A stretch of 57,799 bases of DNA from an uncultured virus (IMG/VR IMGVR_UViG_3300033571_026375) (IMGVR_UViG_3300033571_026375:62001-119799); one strand, 5' to 3'. Shown: positions 934 to 54,817, numbered from the stretch's first letter. Notes: generated by a model from the sequence alone, not told the origin. Made by a program: numbers and translations.

Positions 934-3900
934 TTATTGTGGTGGTTCTTCGTTACCTACGCGATTTTGATTAAGTGCTGTATTGACATTTCCTCTTACA
1001 ATATCTCCTAATGGACCTTCCAATAGTTTTTGTAGTGCTTCTGCTCCGTTAACATTAATCTCCAATGGCTTCTGTTGTGTTAGAGTTAAATTAATTTGTG
1101 GTGGAATATTAAGTTTTTGTAATTGGCCAATAAATCTATCAAAGGTGGCGGTAAATTGGGCTAATTTATCAAAATCAGGTCCGCCACTATTAGATACACC
1201 ACTAGTGCCTCCGCCAGATTCATCCGTCATTCCGCCATATTGCCTATACATAATAGGACCGCCCGCTTGCTTATATACTACAGGACCACCATTATTAAAT
1301 CTATTACTATTAATATCTTGTAATAAAGCAAGATTATTCCTGGTAGCATTTCTATTAACTACAAATTCACCAGGAGTGAGCATAGCAGGCACAGTATCAG
1401 TTCCTTTGGGCTGATAAGGAATTAACATGCCATTATTAGCATAAATTAATCCTCCGTACTGTTTACCAACAGGCGGATTCGCTCCTCCTGCTCCTGGTGC
1501 TGGTAAACCTACCGCTGTTGAGCCCGGTAAAGATACTGAGCCCACTTCTTTATTTAATTCTAACCATCCTTCGTATAGCGCTTTTCCTTCTGCCTGGCCA
1601 TGCTTTATTTGAGCATCTAGAATATCATAGTAAGTAAATCCAGGATTTTGTACCGACTCATAATTTCTAGCATTACCTGTTAGAGATTGTATAGCTACAG
1701 AAGATCTTTGAACGACACCTAATAAATACTGAAAGCGTTGTTGAGCCGTTGCTCTTTCTGCATTTATGAGAGCAGCCTTTTGATCGGACGATGCTTTTGC
1801 TATTTTATCTTCAACCATAGTTATAACTTGATCTTTAGTTAGATCTTCGTTAATAGCGTTTGCATCAAGTGCATCAAACAGATTACGAGCTTGCTTTATC
1901 TGATTATCTATTTCAAAAAATAATGGCGCTCTATTTCCAAATTTTTTATATCCGCTTAATATTTGAGTTTGTTCTTGACGTTCTTCGTGTCTTTGTCTCG
2001 CTTCAGCCCATTGCTTATGATCTGGGTTGTGACCCCCGTTCGCATAATAACTCGGTGTGATAATACCACCATCAGCTTTATAATTTCCATCATTAATAGC
2101 ACTCAATAGAGGTAAATGTTTTTTTGTTGCTCTAGCATTAACTACAAATTCTCCAGGAGTCAACATTGCTGGTACGGTATCTGTGCCTCTTGGTTGATAA
2201 TTTATAAGAGTTCCATTACTAGCATATACCATACCTCCGTTGTACAAACCAGCGGCTCCCGCCGCAGGAGCAGCGGCGGCACCGGCCGCAGCGGGACCAG
2301 GAACAGCACCAGCAGGTGCAGCGGCGCCTCCGAGCATACCCGCAAGAGCATCTTTGGCCGCCCCAATGGTGTCGGTTACTGATTGTTTCGCCGAGTCTAT
2401 GCTCTGACTAATCATTACAATTATTTTTGATTGTATGCTATTAACTTCCTCGTCTACCCAAGCTGGTTTTTCAACTGAAGCTTTGGCTATCGCGGCCTCG
2501 GCTTTCATTCCAGTATATTCTATGGCGCCCATAATGAGTTTTGTACTAATACCCATATTAGTTCTATTTTGTAGTTGTAGCGTTAAAATATTTTCTGCAT
2601 TTTTTTGGTTTTTATTTTGACTATCTTTACAACAATCTAAAATTTTACCTGTTGATTCATCTAATTTTTTAGGAACAGGATTATTAATTAATAATGATTT
2701 GATATCCTTGCCAAGAATCTCTACATTTTTTACATCTTTACCAACATTACTGAGTTTTGCAGCATTCTTGTCTGATACAAACAAAGGAGGAGCCGCGGGA
2801 GCAGATTGTCCTCCGGCTGATAAATATGAAACAGTTCCGCCTTTGCTACGGTTGAGAGTTTTTAATAAAGGCAAGTGTTTTTGTGTGGCGGCTCTATTAA
2901 CCACAAATTCACCCGGCGTTAACATAGCCGGAACAGTATCAGTACCCCTAGGTTGATAAGGAATAAGCATGCCATTTTGAGCATATACCACACCACCCCT
3001 AGACAATCCTTGTGCTTCTTTTTCTTGTTTTAAGACACTATCATATTTACCAAATCCTTTTTTCCATCTATCTTTCTTTTGATAAGCTATACTATTAAAA
3101 TAATTATATTCTCCTAGTTTACGTCTCCAGAATGCATAAGCTGTTTTATATTGAGTAAGAGGGCTTGTTCTACCCCACATAACTGTTTTTCCGCGAACAC
3201 TCATTGGTCGATTTGCTATTTCCATTTGTTTAGCAACGTCTGTACTACTTGCAGACTCTACAAATTCATCTGCGGCTCCCTGTTTTTTTTCTGGAGGCAC
3301 GGGTCGAACACCAAATGGTATTGCTGGTGCGGCCCCCGCAGATTGACGTATACCCGCATTACCTTCTTTATTATTTTGGTCAGTACCGAACTGGCCGGAT
3401 GGTAAGAATCCTCCTTGTTTTTTTATTCTAGCTTTATCTTCTTCTGATAAATTTCTAGTATCTTGAGGAGCACCGCCTGGCTTATAATTAAACCCGCCCT
3501 TTCCATCATATGTTGTAGAACTAGGGACAAATGGAGCGGTAGTAGTGTGGGTTTGAGACGAAACAGTTCTGCCTCCAACAGGACTTTTAGCGCGCATAGC
3601 GCCGCCGGTTTCATCTCCTTCTAAACCAATACCTTTATTTAAGCCACTAGTATCTCTTTGATCATATGCTGTGGTTCTTCTATTACTACCTCTAATTCTC
3701 TTGCCTGTAGCATCTGTCTGATAGCCATAAACAGCGGCCGTAGTAAATAACTTTTTGATCGGCTCTGGTGGAGCATGACCGGCCACTAGTTGTCTACTTA
3801 CATATTCTTTATATGTTAATTCATCATAATAATTAGGAGTTTCTATCTTTTTAACAGTTTTACCAGCAGGATCGACAACAGTGGGCTCCAGAGGGGGAAC

Positions 3901-12900: not shown

Positions 12901-15900
12901 TTCTGCTTCTTGTCTGGTTCTAATTAAAGCTTGTTCTAGATCGTATAATACATCTGCACTAGCACCGGCTGCGCGAGCCATAACTAGATCGGCCTCATAT
13001 GCTCTTTGTGCTTCTGCTGCCGTGGCCTGATATCCACGACTCAATAATTGAGAGGATCTAGAGGATGCAACTCCTAAATCATTAAGTACTGTAGCTAGGT
13101 CTCCTAGAGATCTGACAGCAGTATTACTCGCTCCTATTGTATCTACAGAAATAGCATCGGGTCTTGCTGCTGGCCCTCTGCTTCTGCCTCCGAATAAGAA
13201 TTTCTGTACCCTGCCTCCGCTATTCAACCCCAAAGCCTTCGTGGCTTTTTCTCTTAAGATAAAGCTGCCAACAGGCAATCCTATAGGACCAATACTATCA
13301 CTGGTTCCAGTGCCCGATCCTTTAAATATGCTCATCCCTCCACTCGCAAAACTATTCATCCCATTTCGATCAGCCTGATTCATTTTATGGAGTTTCCCAT
13401 AACCAATTTTTTTAGCCATAGCTGGAGGAACATAAGCTTCACCATTACTAACCATAGCAGGTACAGTCCCACCACCAGCATAGCCCATAACGTTCTTTAA
13501 ATATGTAACGATATTATCTTTGATTGTGGATGGCCCACTAATAGTTCTCTTAACATCTGTGGGTATATCATCAGGTAGTCCAAAATATTTAGCAGCATCG
13601 CCTAACCCATTGGGAAAATCAAATCCCATGCCTTTGAGGGCTCCGGGACCACCAAGTTTTTGTACAACCTGTTCTAGTAATAACCCCTCTATATCTCCCT
13701 GTGCTTGCGAATTTGGTAAACTTTTGCCAGTTCCGTATAAATAACTAGTGATACCTTCATTAGATCGTTTTTTGGCTGCTGCTATATTACGCGGATCATC
13801 ATCAACAAATAATGAATCTGGATTCAAAAATGCAGCCTTTAATTCGGCAATTTCATCTGCACTAATATTTTCGCCACCAAAGCCTTTAAATTGAGATCGT
13901 GGTATGGGTAGATCTTTACTGGCTAAAAATCCTTGTATAAGACCCAAAGTCGATTCTGGTCTAGCCGTCACCACTCGTATATATTGTAATAAATCTTTTC
14001 TTTGTTTTATCAACTCTACTAAAGATGATCCAAGATAAGTTAATTCTGCTCCCTGTAATGCTGCAGATACTTTATTTGGGTCACTAAACTCCGAAAACAC
14101 TGGTTTGCCTGGATCGGATAATATCTTGTCGGCTCCAGTAACTAGTGTTCGGTCAAAATCCGTATTAAGTTCTTTACCTAGCCCAAGTTTTGCTAGTATA
14201 TCGCCTGTTGTGGCTACCTCTGCTAATCTCGTGGTTAATTTATCTGTTGTTTCTGATACAATAGAGCTAAAAGAAGAAGCTATTTTACTATCCATTATTC
14301 CGCTAATAACTCTAACCTTTGCGGACTGAGAAAGTGACGGAGATTCGATATCCATATTTTGATCGGCAAATTTCGATCCAAATAAGCCTGCTGCGGCAAC
14401 TTCTAGATTATTATTCTGTAATTTAGTTATCTGAGCTTTTGCTGCTCCTAATTGCCTATTGTTTGCTGTAACAGCTTTTTGAAGAATAGCTTCTTTAAGT
14501 CCTTGTGTTTTTGCATCTGGATTTCTTTGTCCTAGTATTGTGTATATCTCACCTGAACTAACTCCAACTTCTCTTTCTGTTGTACTTATGCCACCTTTTC
14601 TGCCAGATAAAATATCTAGGATATCTTTTCTACTCATGCCTCTTGCTTTTTCAAGAGTAAGGGTTTCACCCCCTTCTTTAAATTTTTGAACAATACCTCC
14701 AGATCTTAATTTCCTATAAAATTGCTTTTTATGAGATTCTAATCCAGGACCTGTATCTCCTCCATAGTATTCAAGATTGCCTAGATTGACAGTATTACGA
14801 CCAAGCGGGTCTGTTTCTATGGATCCGTCAACTTGGTCCGAAGAATTTTCTTTAAAAAACCTATTAACTGATCTATCTAATAATTTTTTAGCCAACAATT
14901 TAGCTATTAAAGCTCGTTTTGGTTCTTTGGTAGTTTTAAATTTTACTTCCCCCCATACGTTACGAGATGATACGGTGTCTACAGGATAATTGGGATTGTC
15001 TTTATTAGCTGCTTCAAGATTATGTCTTTTCCTGATTATTTCCTCATACTTAGTAGCCCAGGCTTTTTCTGCACGAGAATACTCTAGACCATCTATAGAA
15101 TCTGATTCAGGTCCTTGATAGGTTGGTCGCTGAGATTCTACTAATAATTTTCTATTCTTAGGATCTTTTATTTTTGTCTTTAATTTTCCAGTTAACGTAG
15201 GATATGCACCTTTGATCTCACGTATCTCTGCATCAGTGAGCGGTTTCTCTTTAACTCTAATAATTTGAGCATTAACTTTATCATTTAATTCTAAGTTAGA
15301 GTTTTTGTTACGTGGATATAAATAGTTATTTATGATAGTTCTCTGACTATCAGCAAGCTCTCTAACAGTATATCCTCCTTCTCGTAATTTTTTTATACCT
15401 CCTCCACGATTCATGCTGCTTAAATTGTCAGCACCGATACTTCTAACCGCACTCTTTCTCATTACAAACTCACCAGGAGTTAATCTAGCATTGACGCTAT
15501 CAGAATCTCCTGAGCCGGGAACCAATCCTCCTCTAGCAAAACCTATAACACCTCCGTCTCTGGCTCGTTGACGATTACCCCTAAAACCTCCACCAAAACC
15601 ACCAGCAAATTGAGTGAGGGCACTAGCTCCTCTAAAAGCACCCATAATAGCTATTAATGGCAAAACACCTTTAGTTGCATCAGCTACTTTAATTAGTGCG
15701 CTGGCTAAATCCAAACCAAGTCTCACTAAAGTTTGAAAACCCTTACTATCTCCTAGAGATCTAACTAAAGCACTAAATTCTTCTCTTACTTTTTGTATTT
15801 GAACCGCCAGTGCCATCTGACCTTTAGCCGCATCTATCGCAAGAGAGCCTTGACCTTGTTGTGCAATTTTCAGAGCTTCTTGAGCGGTGGAAAACTGTTG

Positions 15901-17109
15901 GATTAACGGAAGCACTTTACCGATTTGTCTGAATCCACCAAGTTCTTCTACTATGCTACTAAATTTTAAATCTCTGGGATCTAGTCTACTTAATCCTTCG
16001 CTGAGTCTGCGCACAGCTTCGTAGGGCCCAACGAATTTACCTTCTAAGTCTGTGAGAGTAACTCCGAATTCTTTTAAGGCTTCTACTGTATCTCCTCTTT
16101 GAATACGAGTAAAAATAGTTCTTAATCCAGTGGCGATAGTTTCAGCACTTTCGCGAGTAGTCGCACGAACACTAGTAAATACTGCAATAAATTCATTTAA
16201 CGCATCTGTGCCTTCACTGACACCTTTACTAGCAGCAGCAAATACACCACCAGTTCTTTGTATAGCAGTAATAATATCTCCGGCTTCTACGGCAAAAGCC
16301 GCAGCAACAGAATTTACACTACCTAAAGCATTTTCTAGCTGTCCAGCGCTAATGCCGAACTGTCTCATAAGCGCGATACTGCCTTCTACAGTATCTGATA
16401 AGCTATCAAAAGATGGGGCCAAAGCACTTTTAGCTAATGCTTCTAGCGCGATTCTCGTATCTTTAGCTGTTAAACCAGCTTGCGCCAATGTTACAGCAAC
16501 CTGAGAAATATCCGATGATGAGACGCCAAAATTTGTAGCTAATTTTGTTATCTCTTGTACCATAGCAGATAATGATTCTCTGCTTTCATTAGTAACTTGT
16601 GACAATCTAACGATTTGTCTATCAAATTCTATATACTGTTGAACACCTTTGGCCAGAGCGTTTGTAACGCCGTAAATAACAGATGTTACAGAAGCGAACG
16701 CAGCAAAACGTCGTACGGCTAGTCCTGCTTGACGACCGAAATCCTCAAATTCTGTTCTGGCTTGCGCAATGGCTCTGCTGGCGTTATTGGCGGCGCCGGC
16801 TGTTCTAACCAAAGGAGTACTGATGGTTGCGGGCAAATTCACATTTCCAACCGCTCTCATCGCAGCCGCCAAATTATTAAATGCTGTAGTAGCATTTGTC
16901 GCAGCTGTTGTCGTAGCTCCTAAAGTTTGTGTTAATACTCTTAGATTATTATTGACTTGAGTAATTGTTCTAGATGCATTTCTATCTATATTTAAATTGA
17001 TATTAGCATTGATATTACCTAGCTGTCTACGAATATTAGACGTTATTTGCCTAATATTAGACGGACCTCTGAGATTGATTTCTGCTGTAAGATTAAATCC
17101 TCTAGCCAT
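934..17109 (-). CDS. Giant tail tape measure protein (5391 aa) with repeat-delimited cargo domains
   Basis: The N-terminal ~500 aa match the phage tape-measure core pattern (FDRQIVRLSQVT...LAQAGL...AVEAGDI...ESAETIATGLRTIFTRI...LGGFRQIGK). The gene lies downstream of the tail tube and chaperone-like genes. RBS GGGAG at 17116-17120. Confidence 0.92.
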   Translation of the reverse strand: MARGFNLTAEINLRGPSNIRQITSNIRRQLGNINANINLNIDRNASRTITQVNNNLRVLTQTLGATTTAATNATTAFNNLAAAMRAVGNVNLPATISTPLVRTAGAANNASRAIAQARTEFEDFGRQAGLAVRRFAAFASVTSVIYGVTNALAKGVQQYIEFDRQIVRLSQVTNESRESLSAMVQEITKLATNFGVSSSDISQVAVTLAQAGLTAKDTRIALEALAKSALAPSFDSLSDTVEGSIALMRQFGISAGQLENALGSVNSVAAAFAVEAGDIITAIQRTGGVFAAASKGVSEGTDALNEFIAVFTSVRATTRESAETIATGLRTIFTRIQRGDTVEALKEFGVTLTDLEGKFVGPYEAVRRLSEGLSRLDPRDLKFSSIVEELGGFRQIGKVLPLIQQFSTAQEALKIAQQGQGSLAIDAAKGQMALAVQIQKVREEFSALVRSLGDSKGFQTLVRLGLDLASALIKVADATKGVLPLIAIMGAFRGASALTQFAGGFGGGFRGNRQRARDGGVIGFARGGLVPGSGDSDSVNARLTPGEFVMRKSAVRSIGADNLSSMNRGGGIKKLREGGYTVRELADSQRTIINNYLYPRNKNSNLELNDKVNAQIIRVKEKPLTDAEIREIKGAYPTLTGKLKTKIKDPKNRKLLVESQRPTYQGPESDSIDGLEYSRAEKAWATKYEEIIRKRHNLEAANKDNPNYPVDTVSSRNVWGEVKFKTTKEPKRALIAKLLAKKLLDRSVNRFFKENSSDQVDGSIETDPLGRNTVNLGNLEYYGGDTGPGLESHKKQFYRKLRSGGIVQKFKEGGETLTLEKARGMSRKDILDILSGRKGGISTTEREVGVSSGEIYTILGQRNPDAKTQGLKEAILQKAVTANNRQLGAAKAQITKLQNNNLEVAAAGLFGSKFADQNMDIESPSLSQSAKVRVISGIMDSKIASSFSSIVSETTDKLTTRLAEVATTGDILAKLGLGKELNTDFDRTLVTGADKILSDPGKPVFSEFSDPNKVSAALQGAELTYLGSSLVELIKQRKDLLQYIRVVTARPESTLGLIQGFLASKDLPIPRSQFKGFGGENISADEIAELKAAFLNPDSLFVDDDPRNIAAAKKRSNEGITSYLYGTGKSLPNSQAQGDIEGLLLEQVVQKLGGPGALKGMGFDFPNGLGDAAKYFGLPDDIPTDVKRTISGPSTIKDNIVTYLKNVMGYAGGGTVPAMVSNGEAYVPPAMAKKIGYGKLHKMNQADRNGMNSFASGGMSIFKGSGTGTSDSIGPIGLPVGSFILREKATKALGLNSGGRVQKFLFGGRSRGPAARPDAISVDTIGASNTAVRSLGDLATVLNDLGVASSRSSQLLSRGYQATAAEAQRAYEADLVMARAAGASADVLYDLEQALIRTRQEAEAEVAVMQSLANMSGVELQDTLSDMEDELRRLTDAARNAAAAAGLTGEELETEVRAGAGDRRRQAFETVAASGTGPLRALGGGTGLDLAAIGATGDDLGRVINNLMRDAETLEQMNMRYTQNRREEVAQAAMAAGNIARAARIRAGSERDVEETIQREIRARTTAVEQNARSTGARGPDEAREFNRQNNMLASFAVMTVGNIIADTINAKSSATEAGVAGGIRGGTQAFAYANQISGELTNFADGLSRTGNRFAGLASNIARFAGRVQIFAVLGEAAIQAYNGIRQFGIELEKNRVEQALSGLTEQFDKLNKDLNQLDLRNAIQSNIIDASRSSERLRSQTLDTASAGWINGIDVFISSLQNSETNNTNRRAALRSQVLEKEGIMEYINTSFGGADTYAAKAAKYSGQQALESSQSFKPVADNINQLISARIRGGENIGDILGGPEFKDFATSLVYADSALNKHIREIELSTRYTEEEKKARIDEIISIQGANKIRTQAAIAQREKDQRELGTVASVYTRSLKRMFTNMEQAINAAAYSLKQMTDNIDLNVSALQGQAKVGSVDLQTSNIIQNPRAYNPGVRSSAQASASSLFGTRAPEMAQLMNLGETVENTVMSTINKTLEDKGPDASNEAIARAVDKSVRDELSGLGLPPELADKLAKEVGDTLVDLRKSGDEKVDFAKLSEKLGSLSSVIDTAKDAQQAAIKALENYQNVLNAYANNINRIIDLETSARDKFNKSVNIAADGSTALSKALGRTITVADAFAKRDASIARQTGGLTDPTDIFNKILSLNNNRDILQSSSREAADKGPAGIQDFIKFNSELKNTNIALRENRAALEDMATNTEKASSAMDAIQEAQQKAAGRIGFLEKVVTSTPDELDSLNQSLYRLQRNMNGQQNTIQNSIGAQKAYRDALNQGASAAEAMRAAQTAFANERKETLGTLQDIMPFLGDNQQANNIKANVLETMLAESGMGVSPLFQQILNTLRNPEQDPATAAAIQYYNQSIAEQSTATRLLGQLDQQLANDIAVQNSKLIVDGLTKTVLTFQNNELRDIADKVNTMVSIMQKAPGAGGLASGGMVYAAGGQFINFQPKGTDTVPAMLTPGEFVVNRAATQANLPLLKSINNGYSRGGKVSYYAAGGFVTNWGSQTSMDEFGMMSDKEIIDPSVEANRAIWSAGYKQNIRLLPSYYTLDFSDDNTTIPSPGADPDSPNFNLDQIKPTSGKVRVGSAVGISRVGDDQYAYIDNQGAIDASSDMPIIKAAETNLYLGLDKFKSTNFAQSKATEYKDRFRSFEALDSTLHKSISMDPIAFADDLPKLSDFTSNANEWNPTLAGKSYGIAFDTSTEIRPTDKDVSAAPSFKIWYYKRSPLNYAGWAPGLAMGVSVKQPNFDIGTPYSSNDGFDSKSWVVFGSGKYKSAMYPDLEKMNGVITGKGIKDANTISSENYELYKNTVDFLSGASTYKDTGGLGAALQQKLSSLYNGLAQFITLDQNEIAPLDELVKLNATSAIIAQQSLEQQFKDGLQFIDTNAAKYNKVKIGLTGAKPAIKNPDFLASKPFDIENTATKISKSFPFMINGNMREILGKDFEDVAAQQAAATKGKVHSRLLPVDELKVNLPVNIQGKQPQLSIPIAYEEYTGELFDPSTKNFDGKPFTTLLPNNISETLFQNLDESRKRLFTTKKYTVPDILKASKLDDPTNPIFTDIIDLFKFQTNNDPNVDAQAKKVAANLNLVFDHPQNSLIKNVGLAGDGGVDVFSAMSDEPTTVNVGEFLLKKFQEFRGQLASGANKVDPIMPKGAVFSDAELPQATAALIRGSMALFGGLKLPGAPYGWLSKSGGPQALRAAISGNPVAAAQHMAGVLNQAGAYVSQLQNRAPNVSAYNALDNAMTMISGAANAFGSLAGGDTSLLKQFYENKVPIAAVFRSLGAASRFGKISGMKLSPDWQNILGNQLQGSKLKTVGRDGSLSDATLVSAIPENATVSDLVKVIFNPYNEFAGKDIRKGLIQKFGDDIFNLRGPNRMPYFDPQTLSFIRTGLYRLMDWYGGKGNWVGQDYFFDEKNEPDNALRMANFAQSLKTDGSQFYKDAMEAHTLFGLSNAFGALPTDQWFMSRGAVLPQKKAAGGVIYAQTGGNLVNFKPQGTDTVPAMLTPGEFVVNRRATQKNLPLLRSLNSGGSTGYSQGGVVYLSGGSADPVVDVTGNGVGNISPKVIQQALITGIRNDQLLAGNASREDTLDMTVRDYTRRTVFKDHLLNLGVTPEQLKIAEDDLRERSETGVDLPAGDMYDRQIAGTLIRQGISQDIIDKAKKANYEAQNKTFRIQKDLFDKKKMALARSNVFGVEYFMGNLSIFDASRGARKDKKLLEERFKLTDMTKDNTVNVLDLLTWLSRNPDVQSAANPYISSSDAWMPKGFLSGSGGVFSDTTRKQDERAEIEPHIRTLSPQLDTWANVLRYRLDSARQAQDLRDAEAKLAQNQTKEKQGVEAWGSGGAGGIDPSEINTLRAKQKEWGQKRLQYMERLNTLEGLISLRAIGGTGVGSLEELVANEQGMSTSIRDNEQLGLREDIIDEGNREGLRKGARNLVMTAAIGAASPFLLPAGIAAAGGAAVLTIGGSLGAMYLADAVEEKNYQNLKNTDPKEFARQQLLRSQNSYQEAAASMENIVDIADMALGIGAGAVNTKGLFKYRFFQEAADGQPVKIKNTAVSRSAEAKDIADKSKAALKDMSDDAKAKPKTADDVKTDTEAKAKTKTEQPATPEKPIKFKSPKVAEAWNNAVAEARAKYNKSINEFSDQQMKDYFETGPGSAAKQQVNAQIEQLKLDAGATKMNDADAWNTIATQYPDRFGQFADDLKKNGYMIDDDGNIIFGPNARGIVDSDPNMAGAFENARTKARQQGIDEAADKLKIKKGSKDYDDLVKAYDDDISIKGRTWRGYVKDKWAAVTKSKWARLAAGGAALLAAWQAWMMLNANKQNQKPPGGAPTIPPAPGTGGSGGGGGGGSGGGNTPTVPPLEPTVVDPAGKTVKKIETPNYYDELTYKEYVSRQLVAGHAPPEPIKKLFTTAAVYGYQTDATGKRIRGSNRRTTAYDQRDTSGLNKGIGLEGDETGGAMRAKSPVGGRTVSSQTHTTTAPFVPSSTTYDGKGGFNYKPGGAPQDTRNLSEEDKARIKKQGGFLPSGQFGTDQNNKEGNAGIRQSAGAAPAIPFGVRPVPPEKKQGAADEFVESASSTDVAKQMEIANRPMSVRGKTVMWGRTSPLTQYKTAYAFWRRKLGEYNYFNSIAYQKKDRWKKGFGKYDSVLKQEKEAQGLSRGGVVYAQNGMLIPYQPRGTDTVPAMLTPGEFVVNRAATQKHLPLLKTLNRSKGGTVSYLSAGGQSAPAAPPLFVSDKNAAKLSNVGKDVKNVEILGKDIKSLLINNPVPKKLDESTGKILDCCKDSQNKNQKNAENILTLQLQNRTNMGISTKLIMGAIEYTGMKAEAAIAKASVEKPAWVDEEVNSIQSKIIVMISQSIDSAKQSVTDTIGAAKDALAGMLGGAAAPAGAVPGPAAAGAAAAPAAGAAGLYNGGMVYASNGTLINYQPRGTDTVPAMLTPGEFVVNARATKKHLPLLSAINDGNYKADGGIITPSYYANGGHNPDHKQWAEARQRHEERQEQTQILSGYKKFGNRAPLFFEIDNQIKQARNLFDALDANAINEDLTKDQVITMVEDKIAKASSDQKAALINAERATAQQRFQYLLGVVQRSSVAIQSLTGNARNYESVQNPGFTYYDILDAQIKHGQAEGKALYEGWLELNKEVGSVSLPGSTAVGLPAPGAGGANPPVGKQYGGLIYANNGMLIPYQPKGTDTVPAMLTPGEFVVNRNATRNNLALLQDINSNRFNNGGPVVYKQAGGPIMYRQYGGMTDESGGGTSGVSNSGGPDFDKLAQFTATFDRFIGQLQKLNIPPQINLTLTQQKPLEINVNGAEALQKLLEGPLGDIVRGNVNTALNQNRVGNEEPPQ
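1354..9627 (-). repeat. Five dispersed copies of the protein motif GTDTVPAMLTPGEFVVN in the TMP (1354-1404, 2137-2187, 2896-2946, 6442-6492, 9577-9627)
   Basis: All 17 residues are identical in the five copies, which differ at synonymous codon positions. Degenerate copies occur at ~13250-13310, ~13430-13470 and ~15455-15510. Confidence 0.97.
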
Positions 17110-51108: not shown

Positions 51109-53142
51109 TTATCGATATATGCCATTATATAGGTCTTCATTAGCTCCAGAAGTAAACCATTCAGGGCCTTTGTATAATTGACCATCTTGTTTCACTATTT
51201 CCGTTCTATTTCCTCCAATAACATCATAAGATGGTGCTACCAAATATGTCTTTAATTGTCTAGCTATCATATTAGCTATTAATAGTGCGCTATATCTGTC
51301 TTTACGTAGTCTACCCTTTTTTCCATTTTGTAATTTAACCTCTGGAGTATCCCAACGATCACGACCTCCAGATCCTGTACTTGTTTGTGTCATTACAATA
51401 GTGGTAAGTTCATTCTTTAATTCTTCTATTTCCAATATGCACTCACTTAAGCTATCATATAAAGGATTAAGATCGGTGTCTAGAATATTTTTGCCCTCTT
51501 GATCTAAAGCTAAGCCCAATGTAAGAGGATCAAATCTAGGAAATAATAATACTTTATCTTCTAAATCTTTTCGTAAGCCATGATTAGCTTGACTAGTCCA
51601 GTCTGCTTTAGCAAATTGTACCAGCTCTAATATATGATGTCCTGGCTGATCATCTGTATCCTTAGGCTTGTCTCTATTGATAGTAGGCCATATCAATATT
51701 TCTCCATTTTCTAATTTTGACGGATCATGCAGCGACTCTTCGATAGCTATACCACCACCCTGAGCATCCATTCCTATTTTCAAAGGAGGAAATACTTTCA
51801 TTAAGTTTCGGATTTTACGAGCGCAAAAACTATAAAAATCATATTCATTAATTAAACCAGTTTTTTGACGCTCTTTAAAATTAGTTCTATTAGTAGTCCA
51901 ACAATAAACAATTCTAGCATGATCAGGATGTAGTTCTAAGACTACAATACTAAAATTATCTCTTTCAGAGGCTGGGTCGATACCATAGATATATTTACTA
52001 AAATTATTGCCAGTAGTAACAGAATCAAAGACAATGATCTGGTTATTTAATATAATGGGTCGTGTATCGCTAGTGACACAACTTTCGATTAAACTTCTCT
52101 TAAAAAACCCATCGCTGTCAGCCGTAAAGCATGCTGCATATTCCATATTATATATGCCAGTATGAATGGTGGCTTTTGCTCTAGCAACCTGTTTGTCATC
52201 CATGAAGCCTTTAGGTATGAGTTCATATGGTATTCTAATAATACTATAGTCTTTCCAATTAAAATTTTCTGGTACTTCACCATTAAAAATTTCTTCTAAT
52301 TTTTTATTATCTCCTTTGCTTTCTATAATAGTTTTATATCGTTTCCAATAATTAGCAAAATGTTTGAATGAATAGTCTGCTGTTCCTGATATAATAGCCT
52401 GATTACCCATTTTTTGACTTAGCTGTTCTAGTTCTTCATTCCATACTCCTGCTTCGATCATGGCTCTTTTTTTGGCTTGTTCTTTAACATTCTGGATAGG
52501 ACTAGCTGAAACTGCTGCGAAACCAGCGACTACTGTTTCATAAATATCCGGAGATATAGATGCAAACTCGTCCGCAATAATAATATGAGCTCTTAAACCT
52601 CTGATTTTGCTACCATCTCCCATAGGAACAGCTATGGTCCAACTATCTCCTAATCTAATAGTACATCTATCAACATCTCGACGAGGACCATCATCATTAC
52701 CATTAAAAATACTTCTCAGAATAGGACTGCCTCTCCAGATAGTTTCCATATACTCAAAAATAATTTTACTCTGCCTAAAAGCTGCGCCAACTATTACAAT
52801 TTTAGTACCAGGATTAAAAATACATCGTAATATAGAATATAAAGCTAAAAGAAAAGATTTACCCCAACCACGACTAGCGATATACATAGGAAATGGTCTT
52901 TCCCAAAATTCTTGTAGAATTACTACTTGCATAGGATGCAATTCTATATTAAATAGTAATTTACATGTTGTTGCTATGTATCTAGGACTTTTTAATAACT
53001 TTATAAGATGTAAATCTGGATTTTCTATATCCTGTTCTGATCTACCAATCATTGGATTGCTTGCTATACTAAGAGAATTAAGATCTCCTAGGTCTAGCCA
53101 AGCATCGTCAAAGATCTGTTTTTGGCTGTCCGTGATATTCAT
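51109..53142 (-). CDS. terL: Terminase large subunit
   Basis: Walker A ASRGWGKS, IRGLRA, Walker B IIIADEF, and RNase H-like nuclease motifs YGIDPA ... KDRYSA. Confidence 0.93.
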   Translation of the reverse strand: MNITDSQKQIFDDAWLDLGDLNSLSIASNPMIGRSEQDIENPDLHLIKLLKSPRYIATTCKLLFNIELHPMQVVILQEFWERPFPMYIASRGWGKSFLLALYSILRCIFNPGTKIVIVGAAFRQSKIIFEYMETIWRGSPILRSIFNGNDDGPRRDVDRCTIRLGDSWTIAVPMGDGSKIRGLRAHIIIADEFASISPDIYETVVAGFAAVSASPIQNVKEQAKKRAMIEAGVWNEELEQLSQKMGNQAIISGTADYSFKHFANYWKRYKTIIESKGDNKKLEEIFNGEVPENFNWKDYSIIRIPYELIPKGFMDDKQVARAKATIHTGIYNMEYAACFTADSDGFFKRSLIESCVTSDTRPIILNNQIIVFDSVTTGNNFSKYIYGIDPASERDNFSIVVLELHPDHARIVYCWTTNRTNFKERQKTGLINEYDFYSFCARKIRNLMKVFPPLKIGMDAQGGGIAIEESLHDPSKLENGEILIWPTINRDKPKDTDDQPGHHILELVQFAKADWTSQANHGLRKDLEDKVLLFPRFDPLTLGLALDQEGKNILDTDLNPLYDSLSECILEIEELKNELTTIVMTQTSTGSGGRDRWDTPEVKLQNGKKGRLRKDRYSALLIANMIARQLKTYLVAPSYDVIGGNRTEIVKQDGQLYKGPEWFTSGANEDLYNGIYR

Positions 53143-53587
53143 AAATTTTTCTCATGATACTGATAGCCATCTTTTCGGCATTAGATGCATTACCACAAAA
53201 TACCAGTTTAATATTATATATTATTTGTAATTCTATCATGTGTTTCAAAATAAATTTAGGCGATATTTTTAACTTATCCCACATGCGTTTAGGAACATTA
53301 GATCCCACAGGATATATTAAAACATCTTCTAGATCAAATTCACATAGTAAGAAAGAATTAGGTATTTTATTCATTCTTTCAATAACATCTTTAAATCTTT
53401 TTTCTGTAATATTATTAGCAAATTCACTTACACTACCTTTACGCTCTATACAAAAAATATGTTCTAATCCTTTTAAGGAATAATCCCCAGTATCTAATTT
53501 AGATATACTTTTTTCCATGTGATCGAAAGACCATGGATGTTGTTCTCTGGTATCTATAATTATATGAAAATTACTGAAGTCTATCAT
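53108..53587 (-). CDS. ERCC4/XPF-family nuclease
   Basis: Hallmark motifs IIIDTREQ, LDTGDYS and IERK. Confidence 0.88.
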   Translation of the reverse strand: MIDFSNFHIIIDTREQHPWSFDHMEKSISKLDTGDYSLKGLEHIFCIERKGSVSEFANNITEKRFKDVIERMNKIPNSFLLCEFDLEDVLIYPVGSNVPKRMWDKLKISPKFILKHMIELQIIYNIKLVFCGNASNAEKMAISIMRKIYEYHGQPKTDL

Positions 53588-53842: not shown

Positions 53843-54817
53843 CTAATTAGTATCGTGTAAAACCATTTCTTTTACCAAATCATCAAAAGTTGTAGATGGT
53901 TTCCAGCCTAATTGCTGTTGTGCTTTAGTATTGACTCCCCTAAGATACTGAACCTCTGCTGGTCTATATAATGAAGGATCAATATCTACATACTTCTTAT
54001 AATCAAGATTGACTATTTCAAAGGCTTTCTTTAAAAAGTCTAACACAGTATATGTAGAGCCGGTGCAAATAACATAGTCATCAGCTACTTTATGTTGCAA
54101 CATAAGATGCATAGCATATACATAGTCTTTAGCATGTCCCCAATCTCTACTAGCATTTAAATTGCCTAATTTTAAGGTATCATTGGTTTTACCTTTCACT
54201 AAGTCTCCTATATATTTTGTGATTTTACGAGTAACAAAATTGTCCCCGCGTCGTGGACTTTCGTGATTAAACAATATTCCAGAACAAGCAAAAATACCAT
54301 ATGCTTCACGATAAATCTGCAACATTCTGTGACTTGCTACTTTGGCTACTCCGTATGGGCTCTGAGGTATTAATTCGGTATTTTCATCTTGATATTTTTT
54401 CCCATCATTAGATATGCTAAAATTACGACCAAACATTTCGCTAGTACTAGCCTGATAAAACTTTATGGCTGAGCCATGACTTCGTATGGCTTCTAGCCAG
54501 TGTACAACTCCTATAGTATCTATCTCGAAAGTGGTAGATGGTTGCTTGAAGCTGGTTCCTACATGGCTTTGTGCTGCAAGATTGTATATCTCATCAGGAC
54601 TATATTTATTAATTAATGTATGAGAACATGATGAGTCTGTGAGGTCAAATTCTTCTAAAATTAAATTGGGGGCTTTTATTATGTGCTTAATTCTTTCAAA
54701 ACTATTAATACTAGATCTACGATAACATCCTATTACTTTATATTCCTTGTCTAGTAGTAGTTCAGCTAAATATGATCCATCCTGACCTGTTATTCCTGTA
54801 ATAATAGCTGTTTTCAT
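53843..54817 (-). CDS. gmd: GDP-mannose 4,6-dehydratase
   Basis: GITGQDGSYLAELLL, YNLAAQSHV, FYQASTSE, PQSPYGVAK, GILFNHESPRRG..FVTRKIT and LGNLNASRDWGHAKDYV. Confidence 0.96.
   Translation of the reverse strand: MKTAIITGITGQDGSYLAELLLDKEYKVIGCYRRSSINSFERIKHIIKAPNLILEEFDLTDSSCSHTLINKYSPDEIYNLAAQSHVGTSFKQPSTTFEIDTIGVVHWLEAIRSHGSAIKFYQASTSEMFGRNFSISNDGKKYQDENTELIPQSPYGVAKVASHRMLQIYREAYGIFACSGILFNHESPRRGDNFVTRKITKYIGDLVKGKTNDTLKLGNLNASRDWGHAKDYVYAMHLMLQHKVADDYVICTGSTYTVLDFLKKAFEIVNLDYKKYVDIDPSLYRPAEVQYLRGVNTKAQQQLGWKPSTTFDDLVKEMVLHDTN

Follow-up and report, generated by a model that had tools for sequence, protein, structure and literature searches.

A predicted HAD-superfamily phosphatase domain within the giant tape measure protein of an uncultured phage

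Phage tape measure proteins (TMPs) are assembled into the tail and expelled from it at infection, as described in PMC9022992 and PMC10770324. A TMP may bring an enzyme with it: in gp96 of Thermus phage P23-45, a TMP of 5,002 aa, the N-terminal part is a virion RNA polymerase, for which the authors propose an action at the entry pore (PMC10770324). Among HAD-superfamily phosphatases of phages, the C-terminal 3'-phosphatase domain of T4 polynucleotide kinase-phosphatase (PseT/Pnkp; PDB 5uj0, 1ltq), to which bacterial Pnkp1 (4xrp) may be added, and the deoxynucleoside-5'-monophosphatase of T5 (Dmp, PF26880) are known systems close to the one described here. According to PMC3592404, D165 of T4 Pnkp acts as nucleophile and D167 as acid/base, contacts to the phosphate are made by S211 and K258, and Mg2+ is bound by D165 together with D278; this HAD domain also opens 2',3'-cyclic phosphates. 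TMP-fused enzymes and Pnkp-like HADs are both already known, yet we did not find their combination described. Literature searches by title and abstract retrieved, among the papers listed, no description of a HAD phosphatase within a TMP, and the jumbo-phage survey PMC7824862 lists HAD phosphatases only as free RNA-repair enzymes. Here we report on a stretch of 57,799 nucleotides from an uncultured virus (IMG/VR record IMGVR_UViG_3300033571_026375, positions 62001-119799; hereafter “the window”), which codes for a giant TMP of 5,391 aa whose residues ~975 to 1135 almost certainly possess a HAD fold.

The parent record of the window is a viral contig of 119.8 kb with an estimated completeness of 74%; a further record of 223 kb (G001), which is estimated to be complete, contains an identical segment. 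The TMP gene consists of a single open reading frame (ORF) situated on the same strand as, and downstream of, the genes for terminase, portal and fibre or fibre-like proteins, all within a structural module. In addition to the TMP model given in Table 1, PF10145 (E 3.3e-23) matches aa 186-379, and the N-terminal part of the ORF is also recognised by several TMP PHROGs, among them phrog_28 (E 8e-27). With both a conserved N-terminal TMP domain and a placement within the tail module, this ORF is, as judged from its sequence, a phage tail TMP. The only strongly hydrophobic segment which emerges from a hydropathy scan of the entire protein comprises aa 3980-4016.

An earlier note on this DNA, prepared from the sequence alone, had claimed an apparently intact HAD phosphatase at 13730-14175 of the minus strand, which corresponds to aa ~979-1126 of the TMP. 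Direct location within the protein confirms the four HAD motifs in the order and at the positions given there (Table 1). A regular expression describing the four ordered motifs matches the real TMP once, at 984-1104, and, as a chance control, 3 of 2,000 shuffles of it; residue 984 is the only site within the whole TMP which conforms to DxDx[TV][LIVM]. Conservation was counted in a MAFFT alignment of 81 rows comprising the segment of the window and 80 homologous segments. D984 and D986 are each present in 80 rows, with a gap in the remaining one, and T988 is present in 79 (one Val, one gap). Position 1048 is occupied by Thr (69) or Ser (12) in every row, A1049, R1050, K1091 and D1104 are strictly invariant, D1103 is replaced by Glu in a single row (80 Asp), and N1108 is Asn in 68 and Thr in 12 rows. 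D1105, which the earlier note had counted among the aspartates of motif IV along with D1103 and D1104, turns out to be variable (27 Asp, 34 Asn), so that motif IV is a DD pair rather than DDD. Apart from this residue the claim of intactness agrees well with the alignment, the catalytic residues being invariant or nearly so in all 80 homologous segments. Overall identity to the query (32-66%) drops to as little as 32% with the catalytic set retained, which implies a far tighter constraint on this set than on the remainder of the domain.

The homologs originate from a phmmer search with aa 950-1150 against 1.84 billion cluster representatives, which gave 81 proteins at E<=1e-3 (54 at E<=1e-10 and 21 at E<=1e-30), one of them being the window's own protein. 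All but three of the 80 others are large, with lengths of 1,897 to 7,872 aa (median 4,413 aa), and in these 77 proteins the domain starts at median residue 1,084; the remaining three comprise 162, 420 and 810 aa. The family amounts to 81 clusters at 50% identity and to 51 viral-contig loci, in 47 of which the surrounding open frame extends over at least 2,000 aa, the other four running off the available DNA. A tblastn search of 50,697 deposited phage genomes with a 351-aa segment of the TMP gave no match. One 7,122-aa homolog (P0028) apparently contains two HAD copies, at residues 2293-2403 (E 8.9e-6) and 3479-3661 (E 4e-23).

Curated models are silent on this domain. Scans of the segment with Pfam, NCBIfam and PHROG gave no significant direct match, no curated HAD model reaching its own cut-off, and Pfam applied to 25 family members yielded HAD-type matches below threshold only. 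Similarly, phmmer of the single segment against the PDB sequences furnished no HAD match. The threshold of a curated model is a criterion of the respective library and not a defining feature of the HAD superfamily, and we make the assignment in spite of this silence because of profile links, a hidden Markov model (HMM) match to the class B acid phosphatase AphA and the predicted structure. Three profiles were used, namely A1 (25 sequences of the TMP domain), A2 (52 sequences of a stand-alone family) and A3 (both combined). Against the PDB, A1 on its own encounters HAD chains at E 0.23 or worse. In a search of 5.8 billion sequences it retrieves the stand-alone proteins P0085 (E 7.5e-8) and P0086 (E 1.6e-5), both of ~183 aa. 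P0086 lies above the cut-off of the Pfam model PNK3P (PF08645; 24.9 versus 22 bits), and P0085 is matched by PF00702 (E 3.6e-5) as well as by six further HAD-type models. The family of P0085 comprises 60 proteins, several of which carry precomputed PF00702, PF11019, PF13419 or PF12689 annotations and whose source names are those of HAD phosphatases. An hhalign comparison of A1 and A2 extends over 146 columns, scores 98.55% (E 1.5e-15) and brings all motifs into register, and a reciprocal search of both phage records with A2 gives the TMP region as the sole match. The combined profile A3 finds AphA in the PDB at E 0.0017 with motifs II to IV aligned, and 16 of its 23 PDB matches at E<=10 are HADs. 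The nearest named clusters of the protein atlas, determined by embedding, are all viral and of HAD-type Pfam assignment (DUF2608, PF00702, HAD_SAK_1, Acid_phosphat_B, T5 dNMPase; score 0.92-0.93); such neighbours are taken as a lead only.

A structure prediction for aa 965-1215 (model 1) shows alternating strands and helices as in a Rossmannoid alpha/beta fold, with block means of the predicted local distance difference test (pLDDT) of ~89-98 over aa 975-1124 except for one block of the cap at 71. In this model motif I follows the hydrophobic strand E17-19, T1048 is located at the end of strand E80-84, and K1091 resides in helix H120-130 which precedes strand E136-139. Between motif I and helix 1 an insert of ~30 aa forms two short helices, which we interpret as a mini-cap that would leave the active site relatively open. 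Foldseek of model 1 against the PDB gives 34 matches at E<=1e-3, with AphA as the best (6.8e-5) and the T4 Pnkp phosphatase 5uj0 among them (E 4e-4, target TM score 0.57). In BFVD 47 viral models are matched at E<=1e-3, and several of these bear the name PNKP phosphatase domain. Hence, a Rossmannoid HAD fold is predicted and the motif aspartates are conserved in homologous segments, the two points on which the earlier note had made its proposal depend, and the profile-profile and Foldseek comparisons it had suggested return HAD proteins.

The place of the domain within the superfamily can be narrowed down by comparison with the T4 and T5 enzymes. Since hhalign against the single sequences of T5 Dmp and T4 PseT is weak, matching only one or two motifs (1%, E 0.05 for the T5 sequence), family alignments are required, and we used 19 sequences of the T4 Pnkp phosphatase domain (A6) and 25 of T5 Dmp (A7); a first search of viral contigs for Dmp relatives had provided only copies at least 90% identical. 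The TMP-domain profile A1 aligns with the T4 Pnkp family at 93.8% (E 1.7e-7, 127 columns) and with the Dmp family at 78.8% (E 1.7e-5, 130 columns), while for the stand-alone profile A2 the corresponding values are 98.1% (E 7.5e-14) and 18.5% (E 1.3e-3). Judged by profile and by predicted structure, Pnkp is closer to the TMP domain than Dmp. All three share a motif II of the type [ST]-x-R (S211-G-R213 in T4, T-A-R in T5, T1048-A-R1050 here) and a motif IV of DD type. R1050, the arginine two residues after the Ser/Thr of motif II, is aligned to R213 of T4 Pnkp, where this residue has an essential role. The best explanation is that the TMP domain belongs to the small-cap HAD branch, of which T4 Pnkp, T5 Dmp and class B/C acid phosphatases are also members, and the likeness to small-cap HADs such as the T4 3'-phosphatase, put forward earlier from the motif layout, is supported. 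The HMMs PF08645 and PF10307 have no match in the phage genome, and PF08645 has none on the segment either.

Each of these relatives differs from the TMP domain in some respect. Sequence identity to T4 Pnkp amounts to 11-14%; the T4 enzyme is a free early enzyme with a fused 5'-kinase and lacks the ~30-aa helical mini-cap, whereas the TMP domain is embedded in a virion structural protein and has no flanking kinase domain. T5 Dmp is a free protein of 244 aa with a C-terminal extension, expressed from first-step-transfer DNA and not carried in the virion. It shares with the TMP domain the TAR sequence of motif II, a spacing of 12 residues between the Lys and the DD pair and a cap insert of similar length which aligns almost gap-free; moreover, Dmp acts, as the TMP domain would, at the very start of infection. 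AphA (PDB 1z5g, 2b82), a secreted homotetramer, shows ~15% identity and a motif IV of GDxxxD type in contrast to the DD of the TMP domain. The closest sequence relatives outside TMPs are the stand-alone phage HADs represented by P0085 and P0086, which display DFD[ED]TL, LTAR, Lys and DD(D)PxNI as does the TMP domain, but are free proteins without flanking modules and have a flap insert longer by ~20 aa. This family is abundant in viral contigs, a relative being encoded in at least 455 of 600 pattern-matching stretches examined; tblastn with P0085 against the 50,697 deposited phage genomes gave no match.

Within the TMP the HAD core is predicted to form part of a cassette of ~400 aa (aa ~815-1208) which folds as a single unit and is located about one fifth along the protein from the N-terminus. 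BLASTP coverage by the 80 homologs delineates a conserved block from aa ~800 to ~1300 with its peak at 1000-1200. For the module preceding the core (module B), 52-56 of the 80 homologs give BLASTP matches at E<=1e-5 which cover it, 16 loci aligning well enough for modelling; its pLDDT in an AlphaFold2 model of 416 residues (model 2; overall mean 88.8, predicted template modelling score 0.62) is mostly 87-97. The module which follows the core (module d) carries a signature present in 70 of the 80 homologs, 172-199 aa after motif I, with D1164, T1184 and K1187 invariant in 27 rows. Its pLDDT rises from 42-63 in the absence of module B to 88-96 in its presence. As module d is predicted confidently only together with module B, we infer that the two pack onto each other, which would place the HAD core between two halves of one flanking domain. 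Module B has no Pfam match and no significant PDB sequence match, and module d has neither a PDB sequence match nor a protein-atlas match. In fold searches with the model of 416 residues the match lists were taken up by the HAD core. A PD-(D/E)xK nuclease reading of the D...[DE]xK residues of module d was considered and not adopted, given the non-canonical strand order in model 2 and the lack of a fold match, and serves as a lead only. As a further lead, four of the nine weak PDB matches of a module B profile are CdiA-CT tRNA-nuclease chains (E 0.7-1.0, none significant), in which the GLLFGAAG..GSAF stretch of the module is paired with sequence close to the N-terminal parts of the chains.

On these grounds the domain is very likely a catalytically competent HAD phosphatase, as far as motifs, conservation and homology can tell. 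If the mechanism of T4 Pnkp is taken as a guide, the aspartyl-phosphate intermediate would arise on D984 with D986 serving as general acid/base, the phosphate would be held in place by T1048 and K1091, and the Mg2+ ligands would be D1103/D1104. The enzyme would be assembled into the virion as part of the TMP and leave the tail with it at infection, ahead of or alongside the DNA. Because a TMP is assembled in the tail and expelled, an enzyme it contains would arrive in the host ahead of any phage gene expression. The phage thus probably brings a ready-made phosphatase into its host, and we regard delivery of the domain together with the TMP as reasonably probable. The P23-45 protein is similar in being a giant TMP with a cytoplasm-type enzyme in its N-terminal part and different in that its RNA polymerase has demonstrated activity, the phosphatase described here being predicted from sequence. 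As substrate we tentatively favour nucleic-acid ends bearing a 3'-phosphate or 2',3'-cyclic phosphate, which the enzyme may heal at the entry site, although we give this point somewhat less than an even chance. The choice is made because the best-matching characterised family is an end-healing phosphatase, because the cap is small and because the virion would contain few molecules of the enzyme. Only a handful of TMP copies is present per virion, and so few molecules would suit rare substrates better than bulk pools. Taken as a whole, a virion-carried, TMP-ejected, Mg2+-dependent phosphomonoesterase which heals nucleic-acid ends at entry is the best explanation at hand, and we rate its chances as about even. 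If true, a phosphatase joins the short list of enzymes carried inside the phage tail tube, and the very long TMPs of large uncultured phages gain support as modular carriers of effector enzymes rather than as rulers only. The large family described above offers a concrete and easily assayed candidate for biochemistry needed at the instant of DNA entry.

Three observations weigh against the choice of nucleic-acid ends. The 93 ORFs which neighbour members of the stand-alone family are heterogeneous and reveal no consistent partner gene: CCA-adding enzyme/HD, UvdE, PAP2 and further HD proteins occur twice each, dUTPase, NUDIX, AAA_33/zeta kinase, cytidylyltransferase and GIY-YIG once each, a few other unrelated families once or twice, and about two thirds of the ORFs have no match. 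A search of the complete relative G001 for a polynucleotide kinase found none; a weak AAA_33 kinase candidate turned out to be RuvB. Finally, the Dmp-like cap and the closeness to AphA keep a role as mononucleotidase alive. The last ~700 bases of G001 code for a protein with a PF09414 RNA-ligase domain (ORF L133; at least 236 aa, E 4.7e-19) which runs off the end of the contig.

A mononucleotide phosphatase like T5 Dmp or AphA, which would act on (deoxy)nucleoside monophosphates or 3'-nucleoside monophosphates in the periplasm or cytoplasm as soon as infection begins, for instance by shifting pools or disposing of host-DNA breakdown products, is unlikely but the strongest of the alternatives. 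It draws on the Dmp family profile with its almost gap-free mini-cap, on the TAR motif and Lys-to-DD spacing, on AphA being the best match in the PDB both by HMM and by Foldseek, and on the presence of a PF26880 cluster among the protein-atlas neighbours. T5, which makes Dmp from its first-transferred DNA, shows delayed infection and about half its virulence upon loss of the enzyme, as stated in a preprint (10.64898/2026.04.02.716235). The T4 Pnkp family, however, surpasses Dmp in the profile comparison and heads both structural rankings, and for the stand-alone relatives it is far ahead. A handful of enzyme molecules per virion would, furthermore, fit poorly with bulk nucleotide pools, an objection which a long latent period would soften.

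A more elaborate version of the end-healing reading, which we deem quite unlikely, regards giant TMPs as possible strings for the delivery of ready-made enzymes and takes the cassette as a two-part machine for processing nucleic-acid ends, in which a Pnkp-like phosphatase clamped between the halves of a second conserved domain is threaded in beside the leading DNA end and repairs or trims it, or undoes host-nuclease damage, before phage genes are expressed. The second domain, with its invariant D...[DE]xK, would then possibly be a nuclease or an end-binding module.

It is rather improbable that the domain has no action in the newly infected cell and instead plays a late or assembly role only, serves as a structural, Mg-binding or spacer module, or is excised at the Gly-rich joints before the virion is completed. 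Processing would be compatible with the repeated Gly-rich joints which flank the cassette and with the different sequence found beyond them in relatives. In addition, a folded cassette of ~400 aa would by our estimate not fit threefold into a tail lumen of ~4 nm, so that it would have to make the passage unfolded unless its location or processing is a different one. Retention of all catalytic residues across 80 homologs of only 32-66% identity argues, in contrast, for selection on catalysis and not on bulk, and the TMP-fused RNA polymerase of P23-45 is carried in the virion and acts after injection (PMC10770324). Slightly less probable still is an envelope or membrane substrate at entry (a lipid, sugar or lipopolysaccharide phosphate) by which the domain would aid the TMP in crossing the envelope as muralytic domains do in other TMPs, since all hints of it are below significance, the position of the HAD domain, within the first fifth of the TMP, is remote from the hydrophobic segment and from the C-terminal end which sits at the tail tip, and nucleotides or nucleic acids are the substrates of all its nearest characterised relatives.

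Table 1. Positions of the TMP gene, its predicted domains and joints, and further features within the window.
Feature	Position	Strand	Basis or remark
Giant TMP gene, 5,391 aa	934..17109	-	single ORF
Conserved N-terminal TMP domain, aa 145-491	15637..16677	-	TIGR01760 tape_meas_TP901, E 4.3e-28
Upstream Gly-rich joint, aa 803-814, SGGIVQKFKEGG	14668..14703	-	motif scan; G804/G805 invariant in 16-row alignment (A8)
Flanking module B, aa 815-974	14188..14667	-	four short helices, long helix, three strands, long helix (model 2)
HAD-fold phosphatase core, aa 975-1135 (predicted)	13705..14187	-	motifs, homology and predicted fold
Motif I DFDRTL, aa 984-989	14143..14160	-	D984 predicted nucleophile, D986 predicted acid/base; aligned to T4 Pnkp D165/D167
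Motif II VVTARP (VVTAR aa 1046-1050; T1048, R1050)	13957..13974	-	aligned to T4 Pnkp S211-G-R213
Motif III K1091	13837..13839	-	aligned to T4 Pnkp K258
Motif IV FVDDDPRN, aa 1101-1108	13786..13809	-	D1103, D1104 predicted Mg2+ ligands; aligned to T4 Pnkp D277/D278
Flanking module d, aa 1136-1208	13486..13704	-	EGxxxE helix, D[FY]PxGLG, IPT[DE]xK[RL]T strand, C-terminal helix
Downstream Gly-rich joint, aa 1209-1229, GYAGGGTVPAMVSNGEAYVPP	13423..13485	-	motif scan
Joint ending the cassette and sequence beyond it	13180..13485	-	GYAGGG
Region of the weak CdiA-CT matches	14188..14712	-	GLLFGAAG..GSAF stretch
Module aa 586-800	14710..15354	-	PD-(D/E)xK-like string
Second giant ORF, 4,690 aa	30586..44658	-
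ERCC4-type nuclease and nucleotide-sugar epimerase	53108..53587 and 53843..54817	-	phrog_3490, E 4.6e-16; phrog_540, E 8e-74

Past the GYAGGG joint which ends the HAD cassette, related TMPs (loci L002-L050) continue with unrelated sequences, which suggests a shuffling of cassettes at the joints. Six copies of a joint motif (GTDTVPAMLTPGEFVVNR and variants), candidate points of cleavage or recombination, are found in the TMP at aa 545, 2505, 3550, 4732, 4985 and 5246, each preceded by [FY]xxGG clusters and located at the edge of blocks which are differently conserved among relatives. Upstream of the cassette, the module formed by aa 586-800 contains the PD-(D/E)xK-like string NYPVDTV ... WGEVKFKT after an AEKAW...YEE helix; it has no Pfam match, and an alignment spanning half of it or more is obtained with only two of the 80 homologs, although BLASTP matches from 26-30 touch the region. 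Outside the TMP gene the same structural module harbours, between the head and fibre-like genes, a second giant ORF which has no PHROG match at E<=1e-5. An ERCC4-type nuclease gene overlaps the start of the terminase gene, and a nucleotide-sugar epimerase is encoded just upstream.

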